From Patescibacteria group bacterium (lineage in GTDB: Bacteria; Patescibacteriota; Patescibacteriia; JAXHNJ01): a stretch of 64,000 nt of DNA. How positions within the stretch are numbered: the first letter of the stretch is position 1; the number at the start of each line of letters is the position of its first letter. The position numbers were made by a program, and so were the translations under genes. Shown in pieces: positions 16,502 to 60,989 of the stretch. The stretch is from the NCBI GenBank assembly GCA_034520665.1, contig JAXHNJ010000001.1, positions 194,579 to 258,578 of the forward strand, read 5' to 3'. The notes beneath the pieces were generated by a model that worked only from the letters and a program-made list of their open reading frames with translations, was not told where the DNA came from and did not search any database.

Positions 16502-17308
16502 ATGGAAAACATTAAAACTCAGAGCGAGGCCTTAATTGACGACGGCCAAAGACGGAAGTTTAAAAATCTAAGAATTTTTAACTTAGTCATGTTCTTTTTT
16601 CACGCGGTTCAAGGGGTTTTAATGCTGATTTTATCTTCTGATTTTGCTTTACCAGTAACTTCCAGTTTTGTGGAAATGAATCAAGCCACTAGTAAACTGG
16701 CCCCTGTTTTAAAGACCGAATTTACTTTAGAAATTGGGCCACTGGTGGCTGGATTTTTGTTTTTGTCAGCTCTGGCTCATTTATTAGTATCCACGGTTTT
16801 TTATAAGTGGTATGTTAGAAATTTAAAGAAGGGGATAAATCCGGCCCGTTGGATTGAGTATTCTTTTTCAGCGTCTTTAATGATTGTGGTTATTTCTATG
16901 TTAGTTGGTATTTATGATGGTGTGGCTTTAATTTTAATTTTCTTTTTGAACGTTATGATGATTCTTTTTGGCTGGGTCATGGAAGTGCATAATCAAACCA
17001 CAAAAAAAACCAATTGGCTTTCTTATATCTTTGGCTGTCTAGCCGGCGCTATTCCCTGGATAGCTATAGCCATTTATTTATTCAGTGCCGGCGAAGGGGA
17101 TAACAAGGCGCCGACTTTTGTCTACTGGATTTTCTTTTCTATCTTTATTTTCTTTAATATTTTTGCCATTAATATGATTTTACAGTACAAAAAAACTGGT
17201 AAATGGAGAGATTATCTTTTTGGCGAGAAAGTTTATATTATTTTAAGCCTGGTGGCCAAGACACTTTTAGCCTGGCAGGTTTTTGCTGGTACTTTAAGGC
17301 CAGTGTAG
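16502..17308 (+). CDS. heliorhodopsin (7-TM retinal protein)
   Basis: 268 aa, 7 TM. Segments closely match the heliorhodopsin 48C12 sequence as I recall it: RWIEYSFSASLMIV, MILFGW, GCLAGAIPWIAIAIYLF, ILSLVAKTLLAWQVFAGTLRPV (Schiff-base Lys in SLVAK on TM7). Confidence 0.8.
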   Translation: MENIKTQSEALIDDGQRRKFKNLRIFNLVMFFFHAVQGVLMLILSSDFALPVTSSFVEMNQATSKLAPVLKTEFTLEIGPLVAGFLFLSALAHLLVSTVFYKWYVRNLKKGINPARWIEYSFSASLMIVVISMLVGIYDGVALILIFFLNVMMILFGWVMEVHNQTTKKTNWLSYIFGCLAGAIPWIAIAIYLFSAGEGDNKAPTFVYWIFFSIFIFFNIFAINMILQYKKTGKWRDYLFGEKVYIILSLVAKTLLAWQVFAGTLRPV

Positions 17309-32405: not shown

Positions 32406-32473
32406 GTTTGATTAATTAATCAAAAATAGCTATAATTAAGGCATAATTTTATACGGTTCAAAACTTTCACAAT

Positions 32474-32532
32474 TTCGTATAATAAACAAATTTGAGGTGA
32501 TTATACGAAATCAATTTGTATAATAATGAGTT
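32474..32532 (+). repeat. 59-bp palindromic element, copy 1 of 3 (also 50821..50879 and 60415..60473)
   Basis: ttcgtataat-aaacaaatttgaggtg-attatacgaa (10-bp inverted repeat around a 16-nt spacer) followed by atcaatt-tgtataataatgagtt (a third half-site). Confidence 0.7.
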
Positions 32533-32641
32533 AAGTCGAATTTTTTCTTCTGCTAAAAATTTAAATCTCTAATATATATTTCCCACGCAAAGAAGCGCGC
32601 TAACTACAAACTTAATTGAAGTTTTAGAAACCTTTATAAGA

Positions 32642-33238
32642 TTGAGTAAATTAAACTATTATATGAACAAAACATTATATATTTTAATTGGAGTAATCTT
32701 AATTGTAGCTTCTTTCTATATAGGCTATACAATTAAAAGTCCTACATCTGCATCACAAGAAATACAAAATCTTAAAAATCAAATAACAAATTTACAGCAA
32801 CAAAATAGCCAATTGCAATCTAATGTAAAAGAGCTGCAAAACCAACTTCAAAATGAAAATGGCTCCGAGAATTCTCAAGATTCAAATACTGGAGCAAAGG
32901 GAAACATTGAATATGGTAAGGGGGATTGTATGCCTTGTGTCTGTGCAGATGAAGATTGTACTGGATGCCCAGAAAGAACTTATTCTGATTTTAGTGGTGA
33001 TATTTATTTTATTCTAAAAAGTGATTTAGATACTTTGGGAGATGGTGATTTTGATAACTTAATTGAATCTAGTGCTAAAACTCTGGTTACTAATGGGAAT
33101 TATGAAATCAGTTTGGCTCCTGGAGAATATTTCGTTATGCCAAGAGATGTTTATCAGTATGATAAAAATTTCATAAATATTTCTTCAGGGAATATGGTGG
33201 AGAAAGACTTCAAATTCTTTAAATGTACTTCATATTAA
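32642..33238 (+). CDS. cassette ORF: N-terminally anchored coiled-coil/Cys-containing protein, unknown function
   Basis: 198 aa. TM near N-terminus, Q/N-rich coiled coil, CxCxxxxCxxC cluster. Confidence 0.45.
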   Translation: MSKLNYYMNKTLYILIGVILIVASFYIGYTIKSPTSASQEIQNLKNQITNLQQQNSQLQSNVKELQNQLQNENGSENSQDSNTGAKGNIEYGKGDCMPCVCADEDCTGCPERTYSDFSGDIYFILKSDLDTLGDGDFDNLIESSAKTLVTNGNYEISLAPGEYFVMPRDVYQYDKNFINISSGNMVEKDFKFFKCTSY

Positions 33239-33356
33239 ATTAGAGCGCGCTCCCCACCCCAAGATAAGAGATTTAAATTTTTTAAACGCAGAAGAAAAAA
33301 CTCCTTCGCTTTGCTCGGTGACGCCTTGCAGGCTCTCGACATAAATGCCTCACACG

Positions 33357-33442
33357 ACTTAACAGCGATTATCTGGAATTTTCCTGCGAAAAATCCCAAA
33401 ATTCTGCTACGCAGAACTTCAGATAATCGCGATATATTAGAC
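33357..33442 (+). repeat. attC-like site
   Basis: R''-like ACTTAAC, L'' GCGATTATCTG ... L' CAGATAATCGC, R'-like ATTAGAC. Confidence 0.5.
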
Positions 33443-33495
33443 GAAATGCGAGCGAGCTGATTGATTTATAAATAGAATATGCTTTAAAATAATTT

Positions 33496-34041
33496 ATGAT
33501 GAAAATTATTATGGATTCAAAAATTAAGATCTTAATGGGATTTTTGATTATTGGAATTATTCTAATTGGTGTATTGTGGATTTTGAGTAACCGACCATCG
33601 GAAAATGTCCCCAATGAAGAAACATACAAAAAAGGCGAAAGTATAACATTTAAGATAGATGATAATGTTCAAATTTGCACCGATGATTTGCCTTTCTCTA
33701 TAATTAAATTTAATGAAGAGTCGGTAAAATTAAAACATTCCTGTATAGGAGAAATAGGTTCGGGTTTTGATCAATATTGTGAGAATGGGAAAATGGTTTT
33801 AAAACCAGTTTATCAACTTTGTGATTTCCTAGAGAAATGGTGTCGGGGTTGTAACGATGCACTTACTTGTCGGAATAAATTTATTCATGAAACATTTGTG
33901 TGGGATCAAAAGGAATATGTTGAAACAACTGAAGAATGTGAAGGCAAAATCATTCATAGAGAATTAAAAAAGCAGGTTCCAGAGGGTAAGTATCAAATTA
34001 TTGTAGACGGAAAGATTATCAAAGAATTTACAATAAAATAA
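33496..34041 (+). CDS. cassette ORF: N-terminally anchored Cys-rich protein, unknown function
   Basis: 181 aa, one N-terminal TM, 10 Cys. Confidence 0.45.
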   Translation: MMKIIMDSKIKILMGFLIIGIILIGVLWILSNRPSENVPNEETYKKGESITFKIDDNVQICTDDLPFSIIKFNEESVKLKHSCIGEIGSGFDQYCENGKMVLKPVYQLCDFLEKWCRGCNDALTCRNKFIHETFVWDQKEYVETTEECEGKIIHRELKKQVPEGKYQIIVDGKIIKEFTIK

Positions 34042-34095
34042 AATTTATGACGGCTCGCTCGCACTTAAAACCCTTCGGATTTTGCCCTTCGGGTC

Positions 34096-34172
34096 GTCTA
34101 ACAAGGGCTATACGGCTACGGCTTTCAGCTTTCGCCCAAATTTCGACTTCGTCAAAACTTCGTATAGCCCAA
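34096..34172 (+). repeat. attC-like site
   Basis: GTCTAAC-aa-GGGCTATACG ... CGTATAGCCC-aatac-GTTATAT: R''/L''...L'/R' organisation with a perfect 10-bp L''/L' pair. Confidence 0.55.
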
Positions 34173-34249
34173 TACGTTATATGAAATTGCGGGGCTATAA
34201 CAAATTTTTGCAAAAGTTTTATTAACCTATACAAAATAACTACAATATT

Positions 34250-34705
34250 ATGAAGAAGAAAATCCTAATCACAACAATCACCATTTTATTAGTAGCTTCT
34301 ATTACAATTATATATTTCTTTTTTGCCAATCAAAATCAATTACCAATATCGAAAAATGTGTCTCGGAATGTTTTAGAGATATGCAAAGAAAAAAGTAAAA
34401 TAGAGTGTCATGGCAATTGCATGGATGGTTTTGCAGAAATTGGATATTTTGATTCGCGAAAATATAGTAAACAAGACTTTTTAGATACTCCCGAGGAACT
34501 CTACAAAACATATGGGGAAAAAAGAGAAATGATCCTTGCTTCTCATTACCAAAGCAGCTGTGATCCTTGTGGAAACAAATTTGAGCTTAATAAAAATGGT
34601 GTTTTTCAAGAGGTTTCTTGTGAAGAATTTTTTGAAACAATTGAAAATATTAATAAATCCTGCAATGGTTGTGTGAACACAATATATTTACAAATTAGTG
34701 GATAG
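34250..34705 (+). CDS. cassette ORF: N-terminally anchored Cys-rich protein, unknown function
   Basis: 151 aa, N-terminal TM, 11 Cys. Confidence 0.45.
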   Translation: MKKKILITTITILLVASITIIYFFFANQNQLPISKNVSRNVLEICKEKSKIECHGNCMDGFAEIGYFDSRKYSKQDFLDTPEELYKTYGEKREMILASHYQSSCDPCGNKFELNKNGVFQEVSCEEFFETIENINKSCNGCVNTIYLQISG

Positions 34706-34784
34706 TAAAAATCCTGGCCCGGCAACTCTCCCTCACATCTTCGCTGTTCGGTCGGCACGCTGCACTCTCGCTATCGCTCGGCTC

Positions 34785-34874
34785 ACTTAACACGGCTTAT
34801 GCGGAAACCTCGTTGCACTTCGGTTTCCCAAATGCTCACTACGTTCGCACTTCGCATAAGCCGATACGTTAGGC
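34785..34874 (+). repeat. attC-like site
   Basis: ACTTAAC-ac-GGCTTATGCG ... CGCATAAGCC-gatac-GTTAGGC: a perfect 10-bp L''/L' pair. R' is GTTAGGC. Confidence 0.55.
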
Positions 34875-34919
34875 GATGTTGTGCTGATTTTATCCAGTAT
34901 ATAACCTAAATAAAGAAAC

Positions 34920-35504
34920 ATGAATAAATTTATCCTAGTCATTATTATCATCATTATTGGAGTGGGTATTTGGTGGTGGCAACAATCTGCCAATACTGTC
35001 ATTACGAATACTGGCTGGCTGACATATGAGAATAGAGATTACAATTTTGAACTGCAATATCCAAATGACTGGACCCCTCAAGAGTCGTCTTATGACGATA
35101 TAAATACTGAAGAAAACAAATGGGAACCCAAATATTGGGAAGATTGGAAGGTGGTAAAAAAGATATCTTTCAACACTAGTGTTGAATTTTTTTATCTTGA
35201 TGTTTATATCATGGATCAGAGTATTGAAAGTGTGCTAGACAAGGTAGGAAAAAATCATAGCAATTCGCCCTTTCAGCCTTCCTTAGAGGAAATAAAAATT
35301 AACGCCAATCAAGCTTATGTTACATCTGTTTGCGATTTGGGTTGTTGTTCTAAAGATGTTTATATTGCCAAAGATGAAAATACTACTATACAAATTGCTA
35401 GGGGAGCTGTTTGTAGCGTAGGATCAGAAGAAAATATACAAAAAGCTGAAAACAATACAAATACTTTTGAGCAAATTCTGACTACTTTTAAATTTGCGAA
35501 ATAA
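34920..35504 (+). CDS. cassette ORF: N-terminally anchored protein, unknown function
   Basis: 194 aa, N-terminal TM, W-rich. Confidence 0.45.
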   Translation: MNKFILVIIIIIIGVGIWWWQQSANTVITNTGWLTYENRDYNFELQYPNDWTPQESSYDDINTEENKWEPKYWEDWKVVKKISFNTSVEFFYLDVYIMDQSIESVLDKVGKNHSNSPFQPSLEEIKINANQAYVTSVCDLGCCSKDVYIAKDENTTIQIARGAVCSVGSEENIQKAENNTNTFEQILTTFKFAK

Positions 35505-35520
35505 AAATCAGCACAATATC

Positions 35521-35583
35521 GCCTAACAGCGTATATATGTTATTCCACTTCGCTCCACGGCGCATGATACGCAAACGTTAGAT
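35521..35583 (+). repeat. attC-like site (short)
   Basis: GCCTAAC-AGCGTATATATG ... CATGATACGCaaac-GTTAGAT. The upstream 16 nt (aaatcagcacaatatc) are the reverse complement of 34875-34890, the 5' end of this cassette. Confidence 0.55.
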
Positions 35584-35652
35584 GAAATAATTAAATTCTT
35601 TTGGCTATCGCCAAAAATTATTGGAACAAATTTTTATTTTATTTTTTAAGAT

Positions 35653-36711
35653 ATGAACAAGAATCAAATTATAACATTATCAGGATATAGCATCATTCAT
35701 GGAATTATAGATTTGTGCTGTGCGATAGTTGTTTTTAGTACATTGCTATATCATGGTTATGACGCAAGTGATGTTTTTATTTTTGTTGTGGCTTACAATA
35801 TAATTGCTTTTGGATTACAAGCACCTTTTGGATTGTTAGTGGATAAGTATCAAGTTCCTAAAGAAAGCGCATTTATTGGTTGTACTTTGGTTTTGTCTTC
35901 TTTTTTCCTATTCAACATTCCAGCTTTAGTGATAATACTATCTGGACTAGGGAATGCTTTTTTTCATGTTGGCGGAGGAAGCATTAGTTTGAATTTCAAT
36001 CCACAAAAAGCAACCGCTCCTGGAATTTTTGTTGCGCCGGGTGCGTTAGGACTGACAATTGGAATTTTGATTGGCAAAAGTGGCTCATTTATTTTTTGGC
36101 CTTTTGCATTACTACTTATTTCTTCATGTCTATTTATTATTTTTAGTAAAATTCCAGAGATTAATTATCAAAAAATATCAACTAAACCTAAAATAAATTA
36201 TTTTGAATTGGTAATACTATTGCTCTTGCTATCCGTATCAATAAGAGCATTATATGGTCTGACCGCTGTTTTCGCCTGGAAAGCAAATATTGCCTTGCTG
36301 TTTTCTCTAACTATTGCAGTAGTCGCCGGAAAAGCTTTAGGTGGTTTTTTGGCTGATAAATTTGGTTGGATAAAAACTGCTATTTTTGCTCTAATAATTT
36401 CCGCTCCCTTGCTTTCTTTTTTTCAAGGATCACCAATACTTGCAATAATAGGTGCATTCTTATTTCAAATTACTATGCCGATAACTTTAACAGCATTATC
36501 AAATATGCTTCCAGGCAGATCAGCTACCGCTTTTGGTTTAACAGTTTTGGCCTTAATAATCGGTGCCATTCCCGTTTATTTGGGGGCTAAGTCATTTTTA
36601 AGTACTCAATGGATTGCATTAATAATAATCATAATTTCAGCAAGTTCGCTACTTATTAGTTTTAAATTTCTGTATAATTATTTTAAAGGTCAACTCAAAA
36701 TAAATTTATAA
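35653..36711 (+). CDS. cassette ORF: polytopic membrane protein (MFS-transporter-like, ~10-12 TM)
   Basis: 352 aa, almost entirely hydrophobic helices with short loops. Confidence 0.4.
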   Translation: MNKNQIITLSGYSIIHGIIDLCCAIVVFSTLLYHGYDASDVFIFVVAYNIIAFGLQAPFGLLVDKYQVPKESAFIGCTLVLSSFFLFNIPALVIILSGLGNAFFHVGGGSISLNFNPQKATAPGIFVAPGALGLTIGILIGKSGSFIFWPFALLLISSCLFIIFSKIPEINYQKISTKPKINYFELVILLLLLSVSIRALYGLTAVFAWKANIALLFSLTIAVVAGKALGGFLADKFGWIKTAIFALIISAPLLSFFQGSPILAIIGAFLFQITMPITLTALSNMLPGRSATAFGLTVLALIIGAIPVYLGAKSFLSTQWIALIIIIISASSLLISFKFLYNYFKGQLKINL

Positions 36712-36727
36712 TTTAATCATAATAACT

Positions 36728-37009
36728 ATGAAAAAATTAAAAACAGTTCTAACAACCTTTTTCGTCTTTAGTATTTTCTCATTAATGTCCACTCAAAAAG
36801 CCTTAGCAGACTTAGTGCCGATAAATTATGGAGATGATACACCTTACGGACCAAACGTTAATTCAAACCCAGAGCCAAACGTTAATTCAAGCCCAGAGCC
36901 AAAAACATTTATTGATTTAATTGAGCCGCAACACATTATTATTGGCGGAGCGGTATTGGCTGTAGTAATAATATCTTTTGTAGTACTTTTTAAAATGAGA
37001 AAAAAATGA
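36728..37009 (+). CDS. cassette ORF: small secreted protein with C-terminal TM anchor and basic tail
   Basis: Signal peptide, PEPNVNS repeats, C-terminal hydrophobic segment plus KMRKK. Confidence 0.4.
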   Translation: MKKLKTVLTTFFVFSIFSLMSTQKALADLVPINYGDDTPYGPNVNSNPEPNVNSSPEPKTFIDLIEPQHIIIGGAVLAVVIISFVVLFKMRKK

Positions 37010-37341
37010 GATTTGAATACTATTCTTTAGCTCTAATTTTCACTCTAGTAATTGAGTTATCTGTAGCTTATATTTTAGGATTTAGGAATAAAAAAAGCAT
37101 TGTCACGATTATTTCTGCCAATCTTATAACACACCCTTTGCTTTGTTACTTTTTATGGATAAATTCATTTATTTTCATTATTCCTGTTAACTATTTCTCA
37201 ATTGTTGTTTTAGAAATATTGGTTATATTATTAGAATCAGCATTACTATTCTTCGCATTGAAACAACAATATTTAGATATGCTAAAAGTATCATTTGTCA
37301 TAAACACAACCTCTTTCCTTGTTGGATTATTATTATTTTAA
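37006..37341 (+). CDS. cassette ORF: small membrane protein (3 TM)
   Basis: 111 aa, hydrophobic. Start overlaps the upstream stop. Confidence 0.4.
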   Translation: MRFEYYSLALIFTLVIELSVAYILGFRNKKSIVTIISANLITHPLLCYFLWINSFIFIIPVNYFSIVVLEILVILLESALLFFALKQQYLDMLKVSFVINTTSFLVGLLLF

Positions 37342-37422
37342 AATAATTTTTAAATAATAGAAAAATAAAAATAAATTTGCCCAATAATAACTCGCTTACG
37401 CTCGTTGAATTTAATTACATTA

Positions 37423-37516
37423 TATTAACAGCATGTATGAGGCTACGGCTTTTTACAAAAGTCACCACCCAAATTGCTCTCTGCGGTCGCAATTTCTCAA
37501 ATCCCTGACGTTAGGT
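37423..37516 (+). repeat. attC-like site
   Basis: TATTAAC ... GTTAGGT. The internal block ggctacggctttttacaaaagtcaccaccca is homologous to the element at 39942..40035. Confidence 0.45.
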
Positions 37517-37632
37517 GAAATAGCCAGAAATCTTTAATTATTTTTAGAATTTCTTTGGCAATTTAATAGGTTGAACATAGCTTGTGATATAATATTATAA
37601 ATCTTAAAATATAAATTTTTAATCAAAAAAAT

Positions 37633-38535
37633 ATGGAATCATTAGAAAAATTTAGTAAAATTGAAAAAGAAAAACCAGAATATACATCAAAAATAAAGTT
37701 GTCATTCTTTCGCCATGCGGAAAAAGAAAAGGATAAATCAAAATCTGATTTAAAAATTAGACTAACAGAAGAGGGTAGAAAAAATAGTAAAAAGAAAAGT
37801 GATACTCTAAATATCAGGCAATCAGTCGTCTTTGGTAGTCCCCGTGAAAGAGCACAGGAAACAGCTTCTTTTAGAATGTCTGGAAATCAGGAAGAAATAA
37901 CAGGGGAAGAAACTTTTGAAGAATTAAAAGATAAATTAAATAAGGGATTAAAAGTTGGATCAAAAATTAGCGTAGATAAAAGATTAGATTCTGATTTGGA
38001 CATGGAAAGTGATTTTGGTAAAATCTCTTTAGAAAATTTTAAAAAGGGTCAATATCTAAAATTTTTAGTTGAGGAAAGCGATAGTTTGGCTAAAGAAAAA
38101 GATGATACTAAAGGTTTTACTTATTTGAAAAGTGCTTCAAATGTAGCAAAAATAATTGAAAAATATTTAAGCATTTCTAAACGATGGGATAAACTGGTGC
38201 AGGACCCACAAAAAAACTATGATGATACCTTAGAAAGATATTTTGGCACCCACTTAAGTGTTGGCGAGTGTTTTTTGGCTAAAGCAATAGAAGAGACAGA
38301 AGGTGAAGAAAAAAGAGATGAGTTTGTCAAAGCTCTCAATAATCAGGGATTTGATTTTAATGAGGGTTTTGAAATAGAAATTTTAAACAGCGAAAACGAA
38401 CCATCCGTTCATATATCTTTCAAAAAAGAACTTAGCGACAAAGAAGAAGGCAAAGAAGAAGTAAAAAACGTTTTTGAGTTTGATCAAAATCTATCCATAG
38501 ATACTATAAAAAAAATAGCGGAAAGTAATCAATAA
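37633..38535 (+). CDS. cassette ORF: acidic protein, possible histidine-phosphatase-superfamily (RHAE motif)
   Basis: SFFRHAEKE...LTEEG resembles the RHG/RHAE catalytic motif of the PGAM-like family. A similar motif occurs in the 61168..62223 ORF. Confidence 0.3.
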   Translation: MESLEKFSKIEKEKPEYTSKIKLSFFRHAEKEKDKSKSDLKIRLTEEGRKNSKKKSDTLNIRQSVVFGSPRERAQETASFRMSGNQEEITGEETFEELKDKLNKGLKVGSKISVDKRLDSDLDMESDFGKISLENFKKGQYLKFLVEESDSLAKEKDDTKGFTYLKSASNVAKIIEKYLSISKRWDKLVQDPQKNYDDTLERYFGTHLSVGECFLAKAIEETEGEEKRDEFVKALNNQGFDFNEGFEIEILNSENEPSVHISFKKELSDKEEGKEEVKNVFEFDQNLSIDTIKKIAESNQ

Positions 38536-38578
38536 ATTGCCAAAAAAATAATAAAGAAAAGAAATTTCTGTCTACGTC

Positions 38579-38674
38579 ACATAACAGCGTGTATCTGGTT
38601 CGCCCCTCGGCTCGCAAATTTCCCAAATTTTCTCCGCTACGCTCCGAAAACTTCTCATAAGCCCGATGTTATAC
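38579..38674 (+). repeat. attC-like site
   Basis: ACATAAC-AGCGTGTATCTGG ... GTTATAC. The upstream gaaatttctgtctacgtcac is the reverse complement of the sequence following R' at 37517-37535. Confidence 0.5.
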
Positions 38675-38736
38675 GAAATAACTAAATTCTCTTCTGCTAT
38701 CGTCGAAAAATTATTGGAACAAATTTATTTTTATTT

Positions 38737-39885
38737 ATGAATAATATTGAAAAAAAAATTCCTCTTGAAAATAAGGCTGAAACTATGAGAATACCTGAAA
38801 TTAATATTAGAGAAGAAAAGGGCGCAACGCTTTTATCAATTTTATTACGAGGCTACAATCAAGATTTTGGTAGCCACGACCATGAATTATCTCAAAGAGT
38901 AGATGAATATTTTGAACAAAATCCTCTTGACGAAAAATCAATCAAATTATTAAAAGAAATTAAAGCTCTAGAAGACGACGGCGTTGATGGGGAAACATTA
39001 TTCAACATTGTTTTAACACACGACGATGAAGACAGGGTTGAATCTTTGCTTGAATTTATTTCTAAACATAAAGAGTGCGTAAAAAAACCTGAGAAACTAA
39101 GAAATAATCTTCTGAAAGCAATCAATGATCTAGAAAATAAATTACCAGAAGCATTAAAACAAGATTTTGACAAAGCCACATCTGAAGATATCAAAATACG
39201 AGAGCAAAACATAGAAGATTCCAAACAAAGAATAAAAAAATTGATTGATTTTTTTAGGCCACAAACTAATACAACAAAAACTAAAGAAGTAGTCTTGCTC
39301 CCTACCGATTTTTTAATGTCTGAAAAATCGGGAGTCGCTTTTAATTTTGGGGATAATCTTTATATTTCTTCACATGTCGATAATCCGCATAATTTAGAGC
39401 ATGAATTCTTGCATTGCATCATTAACCCGATCGTTGATAAACTAGATAAAAAATTATCAGATGAACAAAAACAAAAAATAAGCAATCTCGCGAGTGATAA
39501 ACTAAAAGTTGAGCAAGGCTATGGGAAAGAATATTACAGTTTACTTTGCGAAGAATTCATCAGAACTTACAATGATGTTTTTCAACACGGGAAGCAACCG
39601 ATAGTTTATAATGATTTTGTTCAAAAAATTGAAAGCTTAGATGAAGAACAATTTAATTCTTTACTTTCGAAAAAAGAGAGTCTAAAAAATCGTTGCGCCC
39701 AATTGCAGATAAACACATTTGAAGATTTTAAAAACAAAAGTCAAGAATATTTTGACGCTTTTGAAAAAAATGATTTACGAGAAATCATATTTAAATTCTA
39801 CCAGGATTTCACAAAAGAAAAAGAAAAAAATCCAAATTTAGATTTTGAGGAGTTTGTTTTAAAGGAATTTAATAATAGAATATAA
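38737..39885 (+). CDS. cassette ORF: hypothetical protein with HExxH motif (possible zinc metallopeptidase)
   Basis: 382 aa. Single HEFLH motif (LEHEFLHCIIN). No TM. Confidence 0.3.
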   Translation: MNNIEKKIPLENKAETMRIPEINIREEKGATLLSILLRGYNQDFGSHDHELSQRVDEYFEQNPLDEKSIKLLKEIKALEDDGVDGETLFNIVLTHDDEDRVESLLEFISKHKECVKKPEKLRNNLLKAINDLENKLPEALKQDFDKATSEDIKIREQNIEDSKQRIKKLIDFFRPQTNTTKTKEVVLLPTDFLMSEKSGVAFNFGDNLYISSHVDNPHNLEHEFLHCIINPIVDKLDKKLSDEQKQKISNLASDKLKVEQGYGKEYYSLLCEEFIRTYNDVFQHGKQPIVYNDFVQKIESLDEEQFNSLLSKKESLKNRCAQLQINTFEDFKNKSQEYFDAFEKNDLREIIFKFYQDFTKEKEKNPNLDFEEFVLKEFNNRI

Positions 39886-39941
39886 ATAAAAATAAATTTG
39901 CCCGAATAATGCTCGCTGTCGCTCGCGAATTTAGTTACATC

Positions 39942-40035
39942 AGCTAACACGGCATATCTGGTTACGGCTTTTACAAAAGTCTCCACCCATACCTCTCGAC
40001 AAGCTCGGGGCATCAGATATACGCAAACGTTAGGC
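39942..40035 (+). repeat. attC-like site
   Basis: AGCTAAC-acggc-ATATCTG ... CAGATAT-acgcaaac-GTTAGGC. Outer and inner boxes are mutually complementary. Confidence 0.55.
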
Positions 40036-40060
40036 AAAATTTTTCTTTAAGAAATATTTT

Positions 40061-40678
40061 ATGATAAATATAAAAGAATGTAACGAGCCATTAATTGATA
40101 TAAAAAAGTTGTGCCCAAATATCAAGATAGACCTGGGCGGGCGGCGAATAAGAAAAGAAAAAACGGCATATCTTCGAAAAACAGTGGCTGAAATGATTTT
40201 GCATGCCGAAAAGGAATTGCCCAGAGGTATGACGTTTATTATCGATGACGCATGGAGACCTCAGTATATCCAAGAGGAAATCACACAGTGGTTTATAAAA
40301 CGTTTCTCTAAAAAATATCCCAGCTGGCCTAAAAATAAAATTGTAAAAGAAGTCGAAAAATATGTTGCTCCTTCAAATGGAAAATATGCCTCTGGGCACA
40401 TGACAGGTGGTGCAGTAGATTTGAGGTTATTGAAAAATGGCAAAAAAGTTCCGATGAAAAGCTCAAAACTAATATATCAAGAAAATGCAAAATCATTTCA
40501 GCCTAAACTTCCACAATATATTCAAAAAAATAGAAATATAATGTTCACCGCTCTAAAAAAAGCTGGTTTGTCTAATTATCCGAAAGAATATTGGCATTGG
40601 TCGTATGGCGATATTTGGTGGGCAAAAAAAAACAAAAAGAAAATAGCTATCTATGGTGTGATAAAAAATATTTCTTAA
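40061..40678 (+). CDS. cassette ORF: peptidase M15 (VanX / D-Ala-D-Ala dipeptidase-like)
   Basis: SGHMTGGAVDL (SxHxxGxAxD) and EYWHWSYGD (ExxH/WHW) motifs of zinc D,D- or L,D-peptidases. Confidence 0.6.
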   Translation: MINIKECNEPLIDIKKLCPNIKIDLGGRRIRKEKTAYLRKTVAEMILHAEKELPRGMTFIIDDAWRPQYIQEEITQWFIKRFSKKYPSWPKNKIVKEVEKYVAPSNGKYASGHMTGGAVDLRLLKNGKKVPMKSSKLIYQENAKSFQPKLPQYIQKNRNIMFTALKKAGLSNYPKEYWHWSYGDIWWAKKNKKKIAIYGVIKNIS

Positions 40679-40793
40679 AGTAAAACTCAAGCCACGCTGC
40701 GCTCTCGCTCCACTCCGTTACGCTCGGGTCGGACAACAGCGTATATCTGCCTCCGCTACGCTCCAGAAACTTCTGATAAGCCCGATGTTAGGC
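40664..40793 (+). repeat. attC-like site (long form)
   Basis: Ends with GTTAGGC. Its first 27 nt (aaaaaatatttcttaaagtaaaactc) are the reverse complement of 40036-40060, the 5' end of this cassette. Internal AACAGCGTATATCTG box. Confidence 0.5.
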
Positions 40794-40818
40794 GAACCTT
40801 TGTTTGAATAAAATTTTT

Positions 40819-41550
40819 ATGTCAATATTTTTCAATAATAATAAAGAACAAAAAGAGTATATTAAGGAAAAACTTATTAAAGTATATCCCAAATTCAAAA
40901 CAGGAGGATATTTTTTTAGGCAATATTTAAAAAATTATATTAATAGCAATTCAATCATTTTAGATGCAGGTTGCGGAAGTGATGGAATAATATCAGAATT
41001 TCAGTTTATGCCGAAATTAATTATTGGCGTTGATATAAACAAAAGATTATTAGATAAAAATAAAATCGTAAATAAAAAAATAGTTTCTGATTTAGAACAC
41101 ATCCCGTTAGGCAATAATTCTGTAGATATTGTTATTTCTGAATTTGTCTTAGAGCATTTGCGTAATCCATCTACTGTTTTTAAAGAAATATCTAGAGTTC
41201 TGAAACCTAAAGGAATATTTATTTTTATTACCCCAAACATCATAAACCCTATCATGGCTTTAAGTAAAATCTTACCCCATTTTTTTCATACACTATTAAG
41301 AATTAAATTATTAAAAAAGGGAAAAGAAACGCATCCTACATATTACAGAGCAAATATTTACTTAAGGTTACTAAAATTAGGAGAAGAAACAGGATTTCAT
41401 AATTATGAAATTATAAGAGCTGGTAACCCTGAATATTTTGGATTCTGCAAGCCACTCGTGCCAATGTCAATATTTTTTGAAAAACTAATTGACAATAATT
41501 TTTTAAATATTTTTAAAATGTACCTTGTTGGTTGTTTTATAAAAAAGTAA
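40819..41550 (+). CDS. cassette ORF: class I SAM-dependent methyltransferase
   Basis: ILDAGCGSDG (motif I), VISEFVLEHL, LKPKGIFIF. The ORF track starts at a TTG (40804); the first ATG is 40819. Confidence 0.65.
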   Translation: MSIFFNNNKEQKEYIKEKLIKVYPKFKTGGYFFRQYLKNYINSNSIILDAGCGSDGIISEFQFMPKLIIGVDINKRLLDKNKIVNKKIVSDLEHIPLGNNSVDIVISEFVLEHLRNPSTVFKEISRVLKPKGIFIFITPNIINPIMALSKILPHFFHTLLRIKLLKKGKETHPTYYRANIYLRLLKLGEETGFHNYEIIRAGNPEYFGFCKPLVPMSIFFEKLIDNNFLNIFKMYLVGCFIKK

Positions 41551-41639
41551 AATTTTATTCAATCAAAACTCAAGGGAACGCTGCGTTTTCATTTTAGCCT
41601 TTATTTGATAAAATAATAAGGAAGCCAAAATTAACCCTC

Positions 41640-41733
41640 GCCTAACAAGGGATAAAAAAAATTGCTCGGCTCGCAATTTTTCTAAATTTTCTCCGCTACA
41701 CTCCAGAAATTTTTCATACACGCAAACATTATA
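41640..41733 (+). repeat. attC-like site
   Basis: GCCTAAC-a-AGGGATA ... cgcaaac-ATTATAT. Confidence 0.4.
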
Positions 41734-41999
41734 TGCCATTCAAAAAATCTTTTTCCTTTTTATAAGGAATTTTGACAGGCTTTTCAAAAAGGGGAATAAA
41801 TTTGTTTTTTCTTTATTAGAAAGGGGTATATGTTGTTTTCTCCCCGCCAGAGGCGGGCAGGCACCCCTAACCCCCGCCCGCCTCGCTACGCGAAGCGTTG
41901 CGGGCAGGCCTCTGCCCAAAATTCAAAACAGAAAAAATCAAATTTTAAGAAAGAAAGCCCATCTAATACTAAGAGGAGGTATATGTTTATATACATTTG

Positions 42000-43210: not shown

Positions 43211-43329
43211 AACAAAAAACAAATTTATGATTATTGAATAAAAAGCCTGTCAAAATGAAATTTAATTAAAAATGATAGGCTTTCAAAAGGAATAAATTTA
43301 TATATTATATTTAATTTAAAATCTATATT

Positions 43330-44481: not shown

Positions 44482-44771
44482 TTAAAAGAAATAATTAAAA
44501 TCTTTTTCTTTTAAGCAAATATCTCTAATTAAATAAAAAGCCTGTCAAAATGAAATTGAATGAAAAATGATAGGCTTTCAAAAAGGATTAAATTTGATTT
44601 TTTCTTTATTAGAAAGGGGTATCCGCCTTTGCTAATCTCCTTCGTTAAAACTTTGGTGGTCAAGAAGCTACGGCGGACAAGTAAGGTGTTTTCTCCCCCG
44701 CTAACAGGCGGAACAGGCGCTTTACTCCGAAAACGAATTACTTATAAAATTTTAATTTTTAATAAAATATT

Positions 44772-46350: not shown

Positions 46351-46560
46351 GTATTATAACGCAAAATTGCTTGCCTCATACTGCCGCTTTTTTTTCATTC
46401 CACTCCACGGACGTCATATAATAAGAGAGATATACAGTTCGCCCCTCGACAAGCTCAGGGTCGTCGGGGCGTATAACACAGCGTATGCGGTTCGGGACTC
46501 GGCTCGCCCCTCACCCATATTTTGCTCTAAAATGCATAATATAATTTATCTAATTATTTA
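46351..46560 (+). repeat. degenerate attC-like region (two partial copies)
   Basis: TTATAAC box directly after the stop codon and a second GTATAAC-acagcgtatgcggttcgggactcggctcgcccctc block homologous to 53462-53500. No clean R'. Confidence 0.35.
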
Positions 46561-50149: not shown

Positions 50150-50743
50150 ATGAAAGTATATTTTTTCAGCCCCAAAACCAGTCAAAATAAATTATCCAAG
50201 AACCAGGACATAATTATTAAAACTTTGCGCCGAGCTGGGGTTGATTTATACACAAATCTAAAAGAGAGAAGCCTGCCTTCAGATCTGGCCGCAGTACAAA
50301 AATTGGGCGGCATGGTTTTAGATGAAATGCAAGCCTTAATTATCGGCGGCAGCCAGAAATCTCCGGATATTGGCTATTTATTGGCTATGTCCATATCTCA
50401 GAAAAAACCGGCTCTTTATCTTTATGAAAAAGGCTCAGGTTCGCAGGATGTTTTAAAATACTTATCCAAAAAAAATATTCCTAAAACATTGCAGATAAAA
50501 AATTACCAAAAAAAGAATTTGGAAAAAATAATTGTTGATTTCCTTAATTCCCTGAAAGGCAAGAAAGTCAAAGAAATGCCCCGTATTAAGTTTACTCTGC
50601 GTATTACTCCTTCAATTGAAAAATATCTGCATTACAAAACCCATAACACCAAAAAATCAAAAGCCGACTTTCTCCGCGAATATGTAGAAAAAATGATGGA
50701 GATAGATGACGATTTTCAGGATTTTTTGAGAAAAGGGGAGTAG
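50150..50743 (+). CDS. hypothetical protein; its last 15 codons are part of a duplicated 180-bp segment
   Basis: 197 aa. C-terminus ...EIDDDFQDFLRKGE* recurs as a remnant at 57672-57719 and 60303-60341. Confidence 0.45.
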   Translation: MKVYFFSPKTSQNKLSKNQDIIIKTLRRAGVDLYTNLKERSLPSDLAAVQKLGGMVLDEMQALIIGGSQKSPDIGYLLAMSISQKKPALYLYEKGSGSQDVLKYLSKKNIPKTLQIKNYQKKNLEKIIVDFLNSLKGKKVKEMPRIKFTLRITPSIEKYLHYKTHNTKKSKADFLREYVEKMMEIDDDFQDFLRKGE

Positions 50744-50890
50744 GGGAAGAGATTTTTTTATTGGTAAAAAAAATGGTAAACTATAAACAGTATCGGATTA
50801 ATATAATGGTTTAATAAAACTTCGTATAATAAACAAATTTGAGGTGATTATACGAAATCAATTCGTATAATAACGAGTTGTGCGAAATTG
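50708..50890 (+). repeat. ~180-bp segmental repeat, copy 1 (copy 2 at 60303..60485, ~93% identical; 45-bp partial at 57678..57722); contains the 59-bp palindromic element
   Basis: gacgattttcaggattttttgagaaaaggggagtagg...ttattggtaaaaaaaatggtaaactataaacag...ttcgtataataaacaaatttgaggtgattatacgaaatcaattcgtataataacgagttg is shared by both copies. Confidence 0.75.
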
Positions 50891-50911
50891 TTCTAATTTT
50901 TTCTCAAATAT

Positions 50912-51595
50912 ATGAATAATGTTTTTTTAGTTTTCGGGTACGGAGTTCCCAAGAACATTCTAAAAGACGAAAATTATAATTTTTATTTAAAAATGGTCTT
51001 TAATAAGACTTATAGTTTTGTGATAAAAAATAAGATTGATAAGCCGATAATCATTACTTGTGGTGGTGAAACAGATATGTTAAGGCCGTACAAACGCACT
51101 GAAGCCGATGAAATGATAAAATTCTTTAGTGTATTTATCAAAGAACGACCATTTTTAAAATCAATGACCAAAAATTGGCTTTTTATTCCAGAAAATAAAT
51201 CTCTTTCGACTTTGGAAAATTTATTAAACAGCAATAAGATAATCCAAAAAAGAAAAGTTAAAAAAGCCAATTTTTTCATCTTCTGCGAACAAACACGCGA
51301 GAATCGTATCAAGGTTCTGGCTAAAAAAATACTTGATAAAAATTATAATTTTCTAGTGGTACCTATAGATTTTGATGTGTCAGTAAACAGATACCTGTCA
51401 ATAGGGTATTTAGCAAAAAAAGAAAGTGCGGAGTTGAAACATTCGTTGTGGGCATTACAAAGTCCCGAAAACCTAAAAAAACATCATAAAGTTTTTGAGG
51501 AGAAATTTGAGTACTTCCGAAAAGTAGGACATAAGGCAAATGTTAACGCGGTGAAAGAGTGGTGGGATCAAAAACTTAAGGAATTAAAAAATTAG
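50912..51595 (+). CDS. DUF218 (YdcF/ElyC/SanA-like) domain protein
   Basis: IIITCGGETD...TEADEM...ENKSLSTLENL matches the DUF218 pattern (GG...SEA..M...E..S.nT.eN). Confidence 0.45.
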   Translation: MNNVFLVFGYGVPKNILKDENYNFYLKMVFNKTYSFVIKNKIDKPIIITCGGETDMLRPYKRTEADEMIKFFSVFIKERPFLKSMTKNWLFIPENKSLSTLENLLNSNKIIQKRKVKKANFFIFCEQTRENRIKVLAKKILDKNYNFLVVPIDFDVSVNRYLSIGYLAKKESAELKHSLWALQSPENLKKHHKVFEEKFEYFRKVGHKANVNAVKEWWDQKLKELKN

Positions 51596-51604
51596 AACAA
51601 CATC

Positions 51605-51803
51605 GCACAACACCAAATATCTGGCTTGAAAATTTTTCAGTTATTAGAAAAAACAAGGAGTGAAAAATTTCCGCGCCCAAATTTCGCACTTTTCCGTTTA
51701 GTGGTAATTTAGAGTATAATTAATTTAACAATATAATCAGAATATCAAAGTTTTTAGCACATAAACCAAAGCGCGAAACTTCAGATATTCGGATACGTTA
51801 TCT
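51605..51803 (+). repeat. attC-like site (long)
   Basis: GCACAAC-acc-AAATATCTGG ... CAGATATTCGG-atac-GTTATCT. Confidence 0.4.
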
Positions 51804-51877
51804 GTAATTAATTTGGAATTTGCTATTCGCTTCACAAAAGGGCAAAATTATTAAATCTGTTAAAATCCTTTATTATT

Positions 51878-52519
51878 ATGGACAAAGAATTAAAAAATCA
51901 GTTAATCAAAATCGCCAAAGAAAAAATTCCGGATATAGATGTTTCTCATGATTTTGAACATGCTTTGAGAGTTTTATCTAATGCTGAAAGAATAGCTAAA
52001 GAAGAAAGCGGCGATTTTGATATTATTGTTCCCGCCGCCTTATTTCATGATTTGATTGTTTATCCAAAAAATCATCCAGATAAACATAAGTCGCAAGAAG
52101 AAAGTGCTGAGGCGGCGGAAAAAATATTGAATACTTTTGGCAATTTTCCCAAAGACAAAATAGAAAAAGTAAAAATCTGCATCTTGGAATGTTCTTTCAG
52201 TAAAGGCATTGTTCCTGATTTGTTAGAATCAAAAATTTTGCAAGATGCCGATGGTTTAGAAGCAACCGGCGCAATCTCAATAATGAGAACTTATTCATCA
52301 ACAGGGCAAATGAAAAGACCTTTTTATAATTCTGATGATCCGTTTTGTGAAAATCGTGAACCTAACGCTTCAGAATTTGCCCTTGATTTATTTTATGAGA
52401 GATTGCTCAAAGTTGCTGAAAAAATGCACACAAAAACAGCAAAGAAAATTGCCAAAAGAAGAACTGATTTTTTAATGGATTTTCTAAAAGAATTTAAGTT
52501 AGAATTAGAGGGAAAATAA
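51878..52519 (+). CDS. HD-domain phosphohydrolase
   Basis: H...HD motif: FEHALRV...AALFHDL. Confidence 0.6.
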   Translation: MDKELKNQLIKIAKEKIPDIDVSHDFEHALRVLSNAERIAKEESGDFDIIVPAALFHDLIVYPKNHPDKHKSQEESAEAAEKILNTFGNFPKDKIEKVKICILECSFSKGIVPDLLESKILQDADGLEATGAISIMRTYSSTGQMKRPFYNSDDPFCENREPNASEFALDLFYERLLKVAEKMHTKTAKKIAKRRTDFLMDFLKEFKLELEGK

Positions 52520-52623
52520 TTTTTGCCCAACTGGATATTACGCAAATTCCAAATTAACTCTGCGGTGCTCACTTCGTTCCGCTCCTCGCCGCGCTGCGCT
52601 CTCCTCCTTTCAGTCGTCGGGAC

Positions 52624-52742
52624 AGATAACAAGGGATATACGGTTCCCTCCAGAGGCGGGCAGGCAGCCCTCGGCTCGGGCTTCATCCAAATTTTTCTTC
52701 CACTTCGTTACAGAAAAACTTCGTATATCCCTGACGTTATAC
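52624..52742 (+). repeat. attC-like site
   Basis: AGATAAC-aa-GGGATATACG ... CGTATATCCC-tgac-GTTATAC (perfect 10-bp L''/L'). Contains the ccagaggcgggcaggcagccct GC-rich block. Confidence 0.55.
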
Positions 52743-52803
52743 GCCATTGGGCTACGACTGTAAAAAACGCAATCTATTTAATATCTAAACAAATTATATA
52801 ATT

Positions 52804-53397
52804 ATGACTTTTTTAAACACACAAAAAATCTCGGAAGAATATAAAAAATCAAATTGTTTGTGGGGTTTGGAACCAAACAAGTACGTGACTCAAATCCATA
52901 AAATCATAAAATCTGGAAAAGTTTTAGATGTTGGTGTTGGTGAGGGCAGAAATGCGTTATTTCTCGCCAAACAGGGATTTGAGATAAGTGGAATTGATGT
53001 TTCGAAAGAAGCCATATGTAAATTTCTAAAATTTGCCAAAACCGAAAATTTGAATGTAAGTGGCATAGTGTCTGATATTGTTAATTTCGATTTCAAACAA
53101 AATTATGAGGTTATTATTTCTATTGCCACTTTGCATCTTATTTCAAAGAACAAGGTTGTAGATATAATCAAAAAAATAAAAGAACATACAAAACCTAATG
53201 GAATAAATCTGCTCACTGTATTTACTAAAAAAGATATTGGATTTAAAGAATATCCAAATCTTTATTTTTTTGATGAGGATGAATTGAAAGAATTATATAA
53301 AGATTGGCAAATTTTAGAATATAAAAATTATGTAAAGGAGGAAACCCATAGCAAACCCCACAAACATCATATTTGTGTTTTGATTGCTAAAAAGTAG
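52804..53397 (+). CDS. SAM-dependent methyltransferase (TehB-like)
   Basis: VLDVGVGEGRNALFLAKQGFEISGIDVS: motif I and post-I of small-molecule MTases. Confidence 0.6.
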   Translation: MTFLNTQKISEEYKKSNCLWGLEPNKYVTQIHKIIKSGKVLDVGVGEGRNALFLAKQGFEISGIDVSKEAICKFLKFAKTENLNVSGIVSDIVNFDFKQNYEVIISIATLHLISKNKVVDIIKKIKEHTKPNGINLLTVFTKKDIGFKEYPNLYFFDEDELKELYKDWQILEYKNYVKEETHSKPHKHHICVLIAKK

Positions 53398-53461
53398 CCG
53401 CCCTCCGCCCAACGCTAAAAGGGACGCTGCGCTTTCGCTTCACTGTGTTACGCTCACCCTC

Positions 53462-53560
53462 GCACAACACAGCGTATGCGGTTCGGGGCTCGGCTCGCCC
53501 CTCTCCCATATTTTTGCTTCCGTTGGTCGCAAAAACATCACATATACTGAAACGTTAGGC
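53462..53560 (+). repeat. attC-like site
   Basis: GCACAAC-ACAGCGTATGCGG ... aaac-GTTAGGC. Confidence 0.45.
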
Positions 53561-53606
53561 GTAATAATAAAAAGTTTCTCAATAACATTATTAACACTCT
53601 AAAACT

Positions 53607-53894
53607 ATGGAAAAAAAAGTAAAAATTAAAAAAATGAGGTATCTGTGGTGTCCTAATTGTAATCACTATATGAGACTTAAAATGAAAGAAAGAAACATCT
53701 TCGCATTACTTTTTGGAGGTTTACTTGGTAGTATATGGTCAGTCACGCATGTGCCAGAATCAGAGAAAATTTGTGGTAAATGTGGAAATAAAGAAAATCT
53801 AAAATTTGTGTATTTACGTACAGAAGTCGGTTTTAAAAGTGAGGAATTTGCCTATTATCTACCATCAGGCGAAAAAATAGTTTTTAATAAATAG
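53607..53894 (+). CDS. cassette ORF: small zinc-ribbon protein with one TM
   Basis: 95 aa. CPNC...CGKC pairs and a central hydrophobic segment. Confidence 0.4.
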   Translation: MEKKVKIKKMRYLWCPNCNHYMRLKMKERNIFALLFGGLLGSIWSVTHVPESEKICGKCGNKENLKFVYLRTEVGFKSEEFAYYLPSGEKIVFNK

Positions 53895-53915
53895 TTGGGG
53901 AATTTTTATTACATC

Positions 53916-54013
53916 GCCTAACTCGGCATATCTGGTTACCCTAGCCGTTCGCGAACAGCTGGATCCACCCATATCTCCCTTCGGGAGACATCAAATATAC
54001 GCAAACCTTATAG
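53916..54013 (+). repeat. attC-like site
   Basis: GCCTAAC-tcggc-ATATCTGG ... CAAATAT-acgcaaac-CTTATAG. Confidence 0.5.
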
Positions 54014-54085
54014 GAAATAGAATTTTTACTAAAAAAATTGGGAACTAACTACAAGATTTATTAAAATTACCTTTTTTATAATTTT

Positions 54086-55072: not shown

Positions 55073-55175
55073 CGCTCCCAACCTTTAAAATTGACTCACT
55101 TTATTAGATATAAATAAACGTAAAAATTCTACTCAAGGGGACGCTGCGTTTTCGTTGCTAACGCTCCTCACTCTC

Positions 55176-55260
55176 GTATAACAAGGGATATGCGGTTCCC
55201 TCCAGAGGTGGGCAGGCAGCCCTCGTCTCGGGCTTCACCCAAATTTTTCTGATATAATTC
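55176..55260 (+). repeat. attC-like site, 3'-truncated or degenerate
   Basis: GTATAAC-aa-GGGATATGCG...ccagaggtgggcaggcagccctcgtctcgggcttcaccc is homologous to 52628-52690. No matching L' or R' downstream. Confidence 0.35.
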
Positions 55261-55313
55261 AAATGCCAACGAAACCATAACTTTATATTTAACCAAATTT
55301 TTAACTTATTAAT

Positions 55314-57587: not shown

Positions 57588-57785
57588 AAAAAAACAAAAA
57601 AAGTGCACGTCTTTCTAATATCTAGCTCTCCATATAAAAAAATAGCTAACAAGATATTAAAAGAATTAAAAGATGATGGAAATGGATGACGATTTTCAGG
57701 ATTTTTTGAGAAAAGGGGAGTGAGGTAATTTATTTTTTTATATCTTGACAGGTTATTTCAGTTATGATACAATTATGTCATATAT

Positions 57786-59706: not shown

Positions 59707-59745
59707 AATCTTTAGAAATAGAAATTAATAATTTGTTAAAATAAC

Positions 59746-60485: not shown

Positions 60486-60504
60486 TAAAAAATTATAAAT
60501 TCTT

Positions 60505-60951: not shown

Positions 60952-60989
60952 TTTTTTTAAAACTGCTCCGCTATCGCTCCGTTCGGCTC

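Follow-up and report, generated by a model that had tools for sequence, protein, structure and literature searches.

In a 64-kb stretch of DNA (the window; 64,000 nucleotides, G+C ~33%) from a metagenome-assembled genome labelled by NCBI as Patescibacteria group bacterium, short open reading frames (ORFs) are lined up in arrays as gene cassettes, each ORF being followed by a hairpin element of the type known from integrons as attC. The sequence preceding an ORF (the leader) is commonly reverse-complementary to the sequence following the same ORF (the trailer), in register with the outermost boxes of the attC sites, R' and R''. It is well supported by the sequence comparisons that leader and trailer represent the two halves of a stem that would prolong the attC hairpin in a circular cassette and would be split by insertion at G|TT of the R' box. 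The pairing itself is genuine, withstands statistical testing and recurs in many genomes, and no description of it was found in the literature searched. Its best overall explanation, to which we assign a probability of roughly 60%, is an attC with a cassette-specific basal stem that is split by insertion.

The split inverted repeat is best illustrated by the cassette containing ORF 34920-35504. GTTAGGCGATGTTGTGCTGATTTT (34868-34891) and AAAATCAGCACAATATCGCCTAAC (35504-35527) are reverse-complementary in 23 of 24 nt, with one mismatch, and the outer ends of the two arms are exactly the start of the GTTRRRY box (R') and the end of the RYYYAAC box (R''), with the ORF enclosed between them. An earlier note on this DNA had reported pairing of 34868-34890 with 35505-35527 with one mismatch, which was borne out as a 24-nt pairing anchored on R' and R''. 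No Pfam family was found for the focal ORF, and a homologue search returned nothing but the protein itself. The parts of this cassette are:

34868-34891, + strand: 5' arm, R' box GTTAGGC plus 17 nt of leader
34920-35504, + strand: ORF of 194 aa with an N-terminal hydrophobic segment (NCBI: hypothetical protein U5L76_01205, Patescibacteria group bacterium)
35504-35527, + strand: 3' arm, 17 nt of trailer from the last base of the stop codon plus R'' box GCCTAAC
35521-35583, + strand: attC with R'' GCCTAAC, L'' GCGTATATATG, loop, L' CATGATACGC and R' GTTAGAT, scoring 36.4 bits with the covariance model

The pairings proposed earlier for three other cassettes are also present. For ORF 35653-37341 the repeat 35577-35599/37406-37429 is imperfect, with one indel, and is accompanied by a second arm (35617-35646/37361-37388, 26 of 30 nt). 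For ORF 37633-38535 the pairing spans 37510-37565 and 38533-38585, and for ORF 40061-40678 it spans 40040-40060 and 40665-40685 (20 of 21 nt), the latter arm being separated from R'' by a 45-nt GC-rich block. The earlier list missed the full extent of the arms, the arrays beginning at 50877 and 60471, and the attC at 52624-52742. Across the cassettes of the three arrays the arms measure 12-70 nt and in many cases extend up to or into the start and stop codons; the longest (~65-70 nt) are those of 32530-32607/33239-33363 and 38668-38738/39882-39948. The main arms are as follows:

32530-32607, + strand: leader arm of cassette 32530-33363, pairing with 33239-33303 and 33353-33363
33239-33363, + strand: trailer of the same cassette, consisting of arm, GC-rich insertion (33304-33352) and R''
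35577-35646, + strand: leader arm of cassette 35577-37429, pairing with 37361-37429
37361-37429, + strand: trailer arm of the same cassette, pairing with 35577-35646
37510-37565, + strand: leader arm of cassette 37510-38585, pairing with 38533-38585
38533-38585, + strand: trailer arm of the same cassette, beginning inside the stop codon
38668-38738, + strand: leader arm of cassette 38668-39948, extending into the ATG
39882-39948, + strand: trailer arm of the same cassette, beginning in the last codons
40029-40060, + strand: leader of the M15-peptidase cassette, with arm 40040-40060 and non-cognate R' box GTTAGGC
40665-40737, + strand: trailer of the M15-peptidase cassette, with arm 40665-40685 over the last codons, GC-rich block 40686-40730 and R'' box GGACAAC
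60471-61079, + strand: first cassette of array 3, with NUDIX ORF 60505-60951, arms 60482-60502 and 60942-60962, and attC 60990-61079

The specificity of the pairing was assessed by aligning each of 15 leaders from the three arrays to the reverse complement of every trailer (Smith-Waterman), the first 12 nt (R box and conserved GAAAT) being left out, and by permuting the assignments 20,000 times. The summed score of the cognate pairs was 482 as compared to 304 ± 19 for the permuted ones (maximum 412), and none of the 20,000 permutations reached 482. The trailer of the same cassette was the best partner for 9 of the 15 leaders; in this test little or no arm was found in cassettes 34176-34791 and 52736-53468. 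Overall, leaders matched their own trailers far better than the trailers of other cassettes, and the pairing goes beyond the cases listed in the earlier note. When cassettes were closed to circles in silico, as also suggested there, the circular junction folded 10-26 kcal/mol more stably than the array junction in 8 of 13 cassettes. Terminator hairpins, considered as a source of the arms, were rejected on anatomy.

About half of the cassettes contain a GC-rich block of 45-70 nt between trailer arm and R'' (typically ..CTCAAG..ACGCTGCGCTYTCGCT..), and an ungapped comparison of leader and trailer fails in these cassettes because this block intervenes. A conserved form of the block (..ACGCTGCGCTCTCCTCC..TCGTCGGGGC) lies outside R'' on the trailer side and is unpaired with the leader. 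In the window such blocks are found at these places, all outside R'':

34728-34784, 40686-40730, 52560-52623, 53398-53461 and 55118-55175: GC-rich blocks

The elements between the ORFs have a common architecture. They are 63-199 nt long and consist of R'' (xxxTAAC), a spacer of 1-2 nt, L'' (G.ATAT..GG), a loop with the conserved motif CCCAAATTT, L' (C.CATA..C), a spacer of 4-5 nt, and R' (GTTRRRY). An imperfect hairpin between RYYYAAC and GTTRRRY boxes, as is characteristic of attC, is present at 14-16 sites in the window. The R-L spacers are asymmetric (1-2 versus 4-5 nt), and many L helices are perfectly paired and a few are bulged (e.g. 35521-35583). RNAalifold gave no consensus structure for the attC alignment, and covariation was tested on a manually supplied structure; 8 of the 11 pairs of the L helix were changed on both sides, and none of 500 shuffles matched the covariation score. 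A covariance model built from 17 sites recovered all 17 together with one attC that had been overlooked (52624-52742). This site divides one supposed cassette in two, and the upstream unit then has a fully cognate R box (7/7) and a perfect arm (16/16). A mechanically predicted ORF with a TTG start (52523-52801, 92 aa) overlies the same attC and is probably no gene. In the attCs 38579-38674, 40731-40793 and 60990-61079, L'' and L' are mutually unmatched, giving these sites a mosaic-like appearance. A strict pairing of RYYYAAC with GTTRRRY inside one attC was tried as a filter and yielded a single spurious composite; it is unsuited to arrays because the tail of each R' box belongs to the next cassette.

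Array 1 is situated downstream of MraZ, MraW, FtsI and MurF genes, with its short ORFs all on one strand. Three copies of a 60-nt attI-like block (TTCGTATAATAAACAAATTTGAGGTGATTATACGAAATCAATTCGTATAATAACGAG|TT) are present in the window; they end at 32531, 50878 and 60472, each directly before a first cassette, from which it follows that the window holds three arrays. The arrays and blocks are:

32466-32531, + strand: attI-like copy 1 (..TTCGTATAATAAACAAATTTGAGGTGATTATACGAAATCAATTTGTATAATAATGAG|TT) at the start of array 1, matching the attI consensus found beside recombinase genes elsewhere
32530-41734, + strand: array 1, nine cassettes, with the G of the R' boxes at 32530, 33436, 34176, 34868, 35577, 37510, 38668, 40029, 40787 and 41728
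33357-33442, 34096-34182, 34785-34874, 35521-35583, 37423-37516, 38579-38674, 39942-40035, 40731-40793 and 41640-41734, + strand: attCs of array 1
46471-46547, + strand: degenerate attC remnant with intact left half, near the distal end of the 14.7-kb insertion holding array 1
50813-50878, + strand: attI-like copy 2 at the start of array 2, matching the attI consensus of other loci
50877-55288, + strand: array 2, with the G of the R' boxes at 50877, 51797, 52736, 53554 and 54007
51605-51803, 52624-52742 (newly found), 53462-53560, 53916-54013 and 55176-55288 (degenerate), + strand: attCs of array 2
60407-60472, + strand: attI-like copy 3 at the start of array 3

The attI-like blocks end in GAG|TT, and none of the three is adjoined by a recombinase gene. 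Promoter scans at the blocks did not score above shuffles, and an exact 28-mer of the block had no match in the genome and metagenome contig collections, among which the source genome is not included. Copies 2 and 3 also share ~110 nt of upstream sequence, including the last 40 nt of a gene for a 197-aa protein (50150-50743), and the 3' end of this gene is duplicated once more at 57650-57720.

To locate the crossover we compiled a position profile over 66 cassettes, comparing pairing of each leader with its own R'' and with the R'' of its partner in the array. At R' positions 5-7, pairing with the R'' of the same cassette is seen in 62-73% of cases as compared to 30-44% for the array partner, which is the R'' of the attC in which these positions lie. 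The GA at positions 8-9 is conserved on either side, complementarity drops to 14% and 5% at positions 10-11 (the AA of GAAAT being conserved and its complement never present in the trailer), and from position 13 to 24 cognate pairing is enriched again. The profile thus contains a conserved internal mismatch outside the R box, and it fits strand exchange just to the right of the invariant GTT. In the window, the R box is cognate at all seven positions in 7 of 15 cassettes, as it would be if TTRRRY derived from the cassette's own attC. With regard to the arms, the earlier note had called the complementarity exactly what circular insertion would produce. This overstates the match, as the standard model predicts only the 6 nt of TTRRRY, and in a small control set of four class 1 cassettes (aac(6')-29a, blaVIM-2, aac(6')-Ib and arr-3) pairing extended 1-5 nt past the R box. 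An attC is defined as including the full 7-bp R box, of which the last four R' bases need not pair in arrays (PMC5371416). Full-text literature searches returned no account of attC stems beyond the R box and none of integrons in Patescibacteria.

Scanning a collection of species-representative genomes with a degenerate pattern derived from the window sites gave at least 120 loci. Among the matches listed, most loci belong to classes of the candidate phyla radiation (CPR; Kerfeld-, Magasanik-, Uhr-, Falkow-, Saccharibacteria and others) or to DPANN archaea, and a profile search of these loci annotated 194 near-complete sites. The cognate arm score exceeded that of non-cognate trailers by more than 3 standard deviations in 45% of 83 inter-attC units from 45 loci, where ~1% is expected by chance. 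The GC-rich block together with its attC is 92% identical among three CPR lineages (loci L114, L022 and L106). As part of the explanation preferred here, an integron-like gene-capture system is probably common in Patescibacteria (CPR) and DPANN genomes, and the window would contain three of its arrays. The same attC type was observed on contigs assigned to archaea, namely L132 (Candidatus Altarchaeum), which also has the same short recombinase, and L034, L073, L127 and L139 (DPANN); this suggests either sharing across domains or binning errors.

Several of these other loci contain a recombinase gene. A homologue of IntI1 was found within 8 kb in 17 fetched loci (14 of them with a full-length protein; the loci include L087, L091, L098, L029, L107, L118, L138 and L132), and in 15 of the 17 it is oriented divergently from the array, as in integrons. 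Between recombinase gene and array, 9-10 other loci carry the sequence TTCG.ATA..AACGAG|TTRNNYGAAAT, which is that of the three copies in the window. In 14 related loci the linked recombinases are 277-299 aa long with NF040815 (XerA/integron integrase) as best NCBIfam match; they stay below the cut-off of TIGR02249 (integron integrase), their match to that model falling into two separate stretches. The IntI-specific domain is present in previously described archaeal integron integrases, and most archaeal arrays have been reported as integrase-less clusters (PMC9668308). Short recombinases beside this type of attC and attI are probably missed by integron-finding software.

In close relatives with MurF proteins 77% and 69% identical to that of the window, the genes for MurF, a GAF kinase, an asparaginase and the 197-aa protein are contiguous and without arrays, which identifies both the 14.7-kb segment at 32.4-47.05 kb and the array from 50.74 kb as insertions; the two larger arrays of the window are missing from the same sites in these relatives. 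The M15 and methyltransferase cassettes recur among other neighbours in other arrays (L015, L080), as expected of mobile cassettes. The copy of the M15 gene in L015, an independent array from another metagenome with the same type of site and arms of up to ~58 nt, is 83% identical, and the two cassettes (window 40029-40793, L015 4036-4837; 84% DNA identity) share leader arm, ORF, trailer arm, GC-rich block and R''. A homologue of the M15 gene, 80% identical, occurs as an ordinary chromosomal gene with no attC; the cassette gene is longer by a few C-terminal codons, which are located in the arm. Between homologous cassettes of 75-84% DNA identity, 133 of 141 paired arm positions are unchanged; judged from these alignments, the arms are better conserved than the ORFs they enclose. 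Moreover, homologous leader, trailer and attC were found around unrelated proteins in two pairs of cassettes (35577 with 38668, and 37510 with L015 3022), which shows the frame of arms and attC to be modular. The earlier suggestion that related attC families account for leaders shared by unrelated ORFs agrees with this joint homology. L015 also contains, at 4831-4973, a 143-nt cassette without ORF between two attCs, with GC-rich repeats like those of the trailer blocks.

In the explanation that we favour, the stem beyond the 7-bp R box would begin with two conserved pairs (GA/TC), followed by a 2-nt mismatch (AA of GAAAT on the leader side) and, outward from this, by a cassette-specific stem of ~12-70 bp; some cassettes would have, on the trailer side, a bulged-out GC-rich block of ~45-70 nt. 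Cassettes would be excised as circles, and solely in the circularised cassette would the two stem halves be contiguous with attC. Strand exchange at G|TT of R' would insert the cassette, after which the halves of the stem would lie apart, one as its 5' leader and one as its 3' trailer. A role of the arms at the DNA level is favoured. In the excised single strand, the long stem may offer an Xer-like recombinase a stable duplex-like site. It may instead act in single-stranded array DNA, where leader and trailer would pair over the ORF and bring the flanking attC hairpins side by side in a three-way junction, so that exactly one cassette would be cut out. It is possible, and we put it forward only tentatively, that this widespread CPR/DPANN system is an ancestral or parallel integron with an Xer-like recombinase lacking the I2 insertion, a dif-like attI and arm-extended hairpins, in which the arms are functional and compensate for the missing domain and genes are placed into ready-made palindromic frames.

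A number of observations weigh against this explanation. No tyrosine recombinase was found with Pfam among the ORFs of the window, and neither a circle nor an alternative state of an array was observed. The linked recombinases of other loci are gapped opposite residues ~190-222 and 236-246 of IntI1, i.e. the IntI-specific insertion, so that the protein feature defining integrons (the I2 helix region) is absent from the relatives. According to PMC7790495, this insertion is held to be necessary for recombination of single-stranded attC. Since the linked enzymes are without it, a mechanism based on single-strand hairpins is assumed by analogy. In four or five cassettes the R' box is non-cognate in spite of the arms, with 3-4 of 7 positions matching in 35577, 38668, 40029 and 60471, which have good arms, and the similarity between the M15 cassettes of the window and L015 ends abruptly after R'', with TTRRRY and the attC interior differing; these two observations indicate that exchange does not in every case follow G|TT cleanly. 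In other loci, no arm is seen in about half of the units, in some cases owing to an undetected attC inside the unit. Compensatory changes in the arms amount to only 1-2, because the arms barely vary between homologous cassettes. The types of mismatch give no folding strand in the wider set (12 versus 15). An apparent bottom-strand bias in wobble-type mismatches in the window (19 versus 7) was discarded, being due to the conserved GAAAT/GATGT motif and gone in the wider set. The earlier claim of a circle with a single attC inserted at G|TT is partly supported: the geometry remains the best explanation and the 66-cassette profile fits it; the non-cognate R' boxes and the lack of an integrase in the window qualify it.

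Other explanations of the paired arms must be weighed against a split attC stem. The arms may act in RNA, leader and trailer pairing across the ORF in a polycistronic transcript, with RNase III excising the mRNA of each cassette or the paired ends protecting it, and with the symmetry of the DNA as a consequence. Such a role would suit ORFs that are tightly bracketed by arms, often to the start and stop codons, cassettes that all lie on one strand behind a common upstream block, and arms conserved beyond the level of their ORFs, and folding of the sense strand is compatible with the mismatch test. We nevertheless consider it unlikely, since the arms run on from the R box of a recombination site without a break and in the same register, their start coinciding exactly with the inferred crossover, and since some of them (40040-40060, 38710-38738) would sequester the entire 5' untranslated region and the start codon; G:U-type mismatches are not in excess on the sense strand, and the promoter scans of the attI blocks were, as mentioned, not above shuffles. 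About as unlikely is that the arms are relics of cassette formation without present function, ORFs having been put into gene-less palindromic frames or one flank having been copied in inverted form at birth. The two pairs of unrelated ORFs in homologous frames of leader, trailer and attC, the ORF-less cassette of 143 nt in L015, and the M15 gene, with its 80%-identical chromosomal homologue devoid of attC and its extra C-terminal codons in the arm, would all be accommodated by such an origin. Arms that are kept at ~95% between cassettes whose ORFs have diverged to 75-84% point, however, to present constraint. An origin of this kind is compatible with the split stem and not exclusive of it.

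Double-stranded modules of the Xer/dif type, as proposed for the pdif modules of Acinetobacter, would have inverted duplex sites (R''-L'' and L'-R') for each element and no hairpin. In line with this, the linked recombinases have the length of Xer proteins and lack the integron-specific insertion, the sequences L'-spacer-R'GAAAT and attI are imperfect palindromes of two ~11-nt arms, and the break in M15 homology directly after R'' would suit exchange at R''-L''. Further, TTRRRYGAAAT resembles the XerD arm of Escherichia coli dif. We find duplex modules rather improbable: L''/L' and the outer arms vary freely yet stay complementary, which is the signature of a folded structure, the spacers differ in length on the two sides (1-2 versus 4-5 nt), and a duplex core site leaves long cassette-specific arms without a role. 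Three copies of the site within 30 kb argue against its being the chromosomal dimer-resolution site (dif). Lastly, each ORF is flanked by inverted repeats of 20-70 nt, as would be seen in transposon-like units in which a passenger ORF lies between terminal inverted repeats and the transposase is supplied in trans (a miniature inverted-repeat transposable element with cargo). The arms of most cassettes are, however, unrelated in sequence, so no single transposase could recognise them; target-site duplications are absent, the units are strictly head-to-tail on one strand with a conserved hairpin between them, and the enzyme linked to them elsewhere is a tyrosine recombinase in the divergent orientation typical of integrons. 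On this anatomy the transposon reading was rejected as very improbable.

Compared with known systems, the arrays resemble integrons in that short ORFs on one strand are strung head-to-tail, with RYYYAAC...GTTRRRY boxes and a covarying inner (L) helix after every ORF, and in that related loci have an attI-like site at the start of the array beside a divergent tyrosine recombinase gene. As in integrons, the first bases of a cassette go with its own R'', and the arrays are absent from close relatives. They differ from integrons in the stem, reaching 12-70 nt past the R box against 1-5 nt in the four class 1 cassettes, and in the conserved GAAAT after R', the conserved 2-nt mismatch, the optional GC-rich block outside R'' and the conserved loop motif CCCAAATTT. 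Many inner helices are perfectly paired here and show no obvious extrahelical bases; the integron-integrase insertion is missing from the linked recombinases, and the window has three attI-like copies with no recombinase adjacent. In integrative mobile elements exploiting Xer (IMEX) such as CTX-phi, a folded single-stranded hairpin is integrated into dif by the host XerCD. The present elements are similar to these in the Xer-type enzyme without integron insertion, in a single-stranded circle (here a postulated one) whose hairpin mimics a duplex site, and in successive insertions forming arrays at one site. Unlike IMEX, they consist of single ORFs without phage functions and of dozens of hairpins with one architecture, and with three occurrences in 30 kb their target is probably not the dif of the chromosome. 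The pdif modules of Acinetobacter plasmids likewise have genes between inverted Xer-type sites; these are, however, 28-bp duplex sites common to neighbouring modules, without hairpin covariation or cassette-specific arms. Long-range pairing of 5' and 3' flanks around a unit of 0.6-2 kb is also known from the processing stems of pre-rRNA (RNase III substrates), which are an RNA-level device, whereas the pairing described here is in register with a DNA recombination site.

Some further features of the window were noted. A repeated non-coding element (AAAAAGCCTGTCAAAATGAAATT..ATGATAGGCTTTCAAAAGGAATAAATTT) is present at 41770-41940, 43233-43320 and 44528-44740, before a Fic gene and two unknown genes; it is followed twice by a GC-rich stretch (GGGGTAT..TTTTCTCCCC..) and has no Rfam match. 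Rfam and tRNA scans of the window found nothing. A heliorhodopsin gene is located at 16502-17308 (Pfam PF18761, E 3e-103), and between arrays 2 and 3 there is an AbiEii-type toxin gene with an upstream partner (57786-59706), after which ~600 nt (59707-60300) resemble a frameshifted gene remnant.

The 7-bp R box has been regarded as the limit of integron sites, and annotation tools go no further. With a stem that extends into the cassette, specific to each cassette and conserved beyond the level of the coding sequence, part of the site would form solely in the excised circle or through pairing of the two flanks of the ORF, and an asymmetry between excision and insertion would thus be built into the DNA. 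Arrays of this kind would be scored as integrase-less attC clusters, and their frequency in candidate phyla may be underestimated. If the elements are active, they would offer a natural system in which the need for the IntI-specific domain in single-stranded attC recombination can be tested. The frames shared by unrelated ORFs, together with the chromosomal M15 homologue, constitute material on the origin of gene cassettes; should genes indeed be placed into ready-made frames, the recurrence of identical frames of arm and attC with unrelated ORFs inside would reveal the way in which cassettes are assembled.

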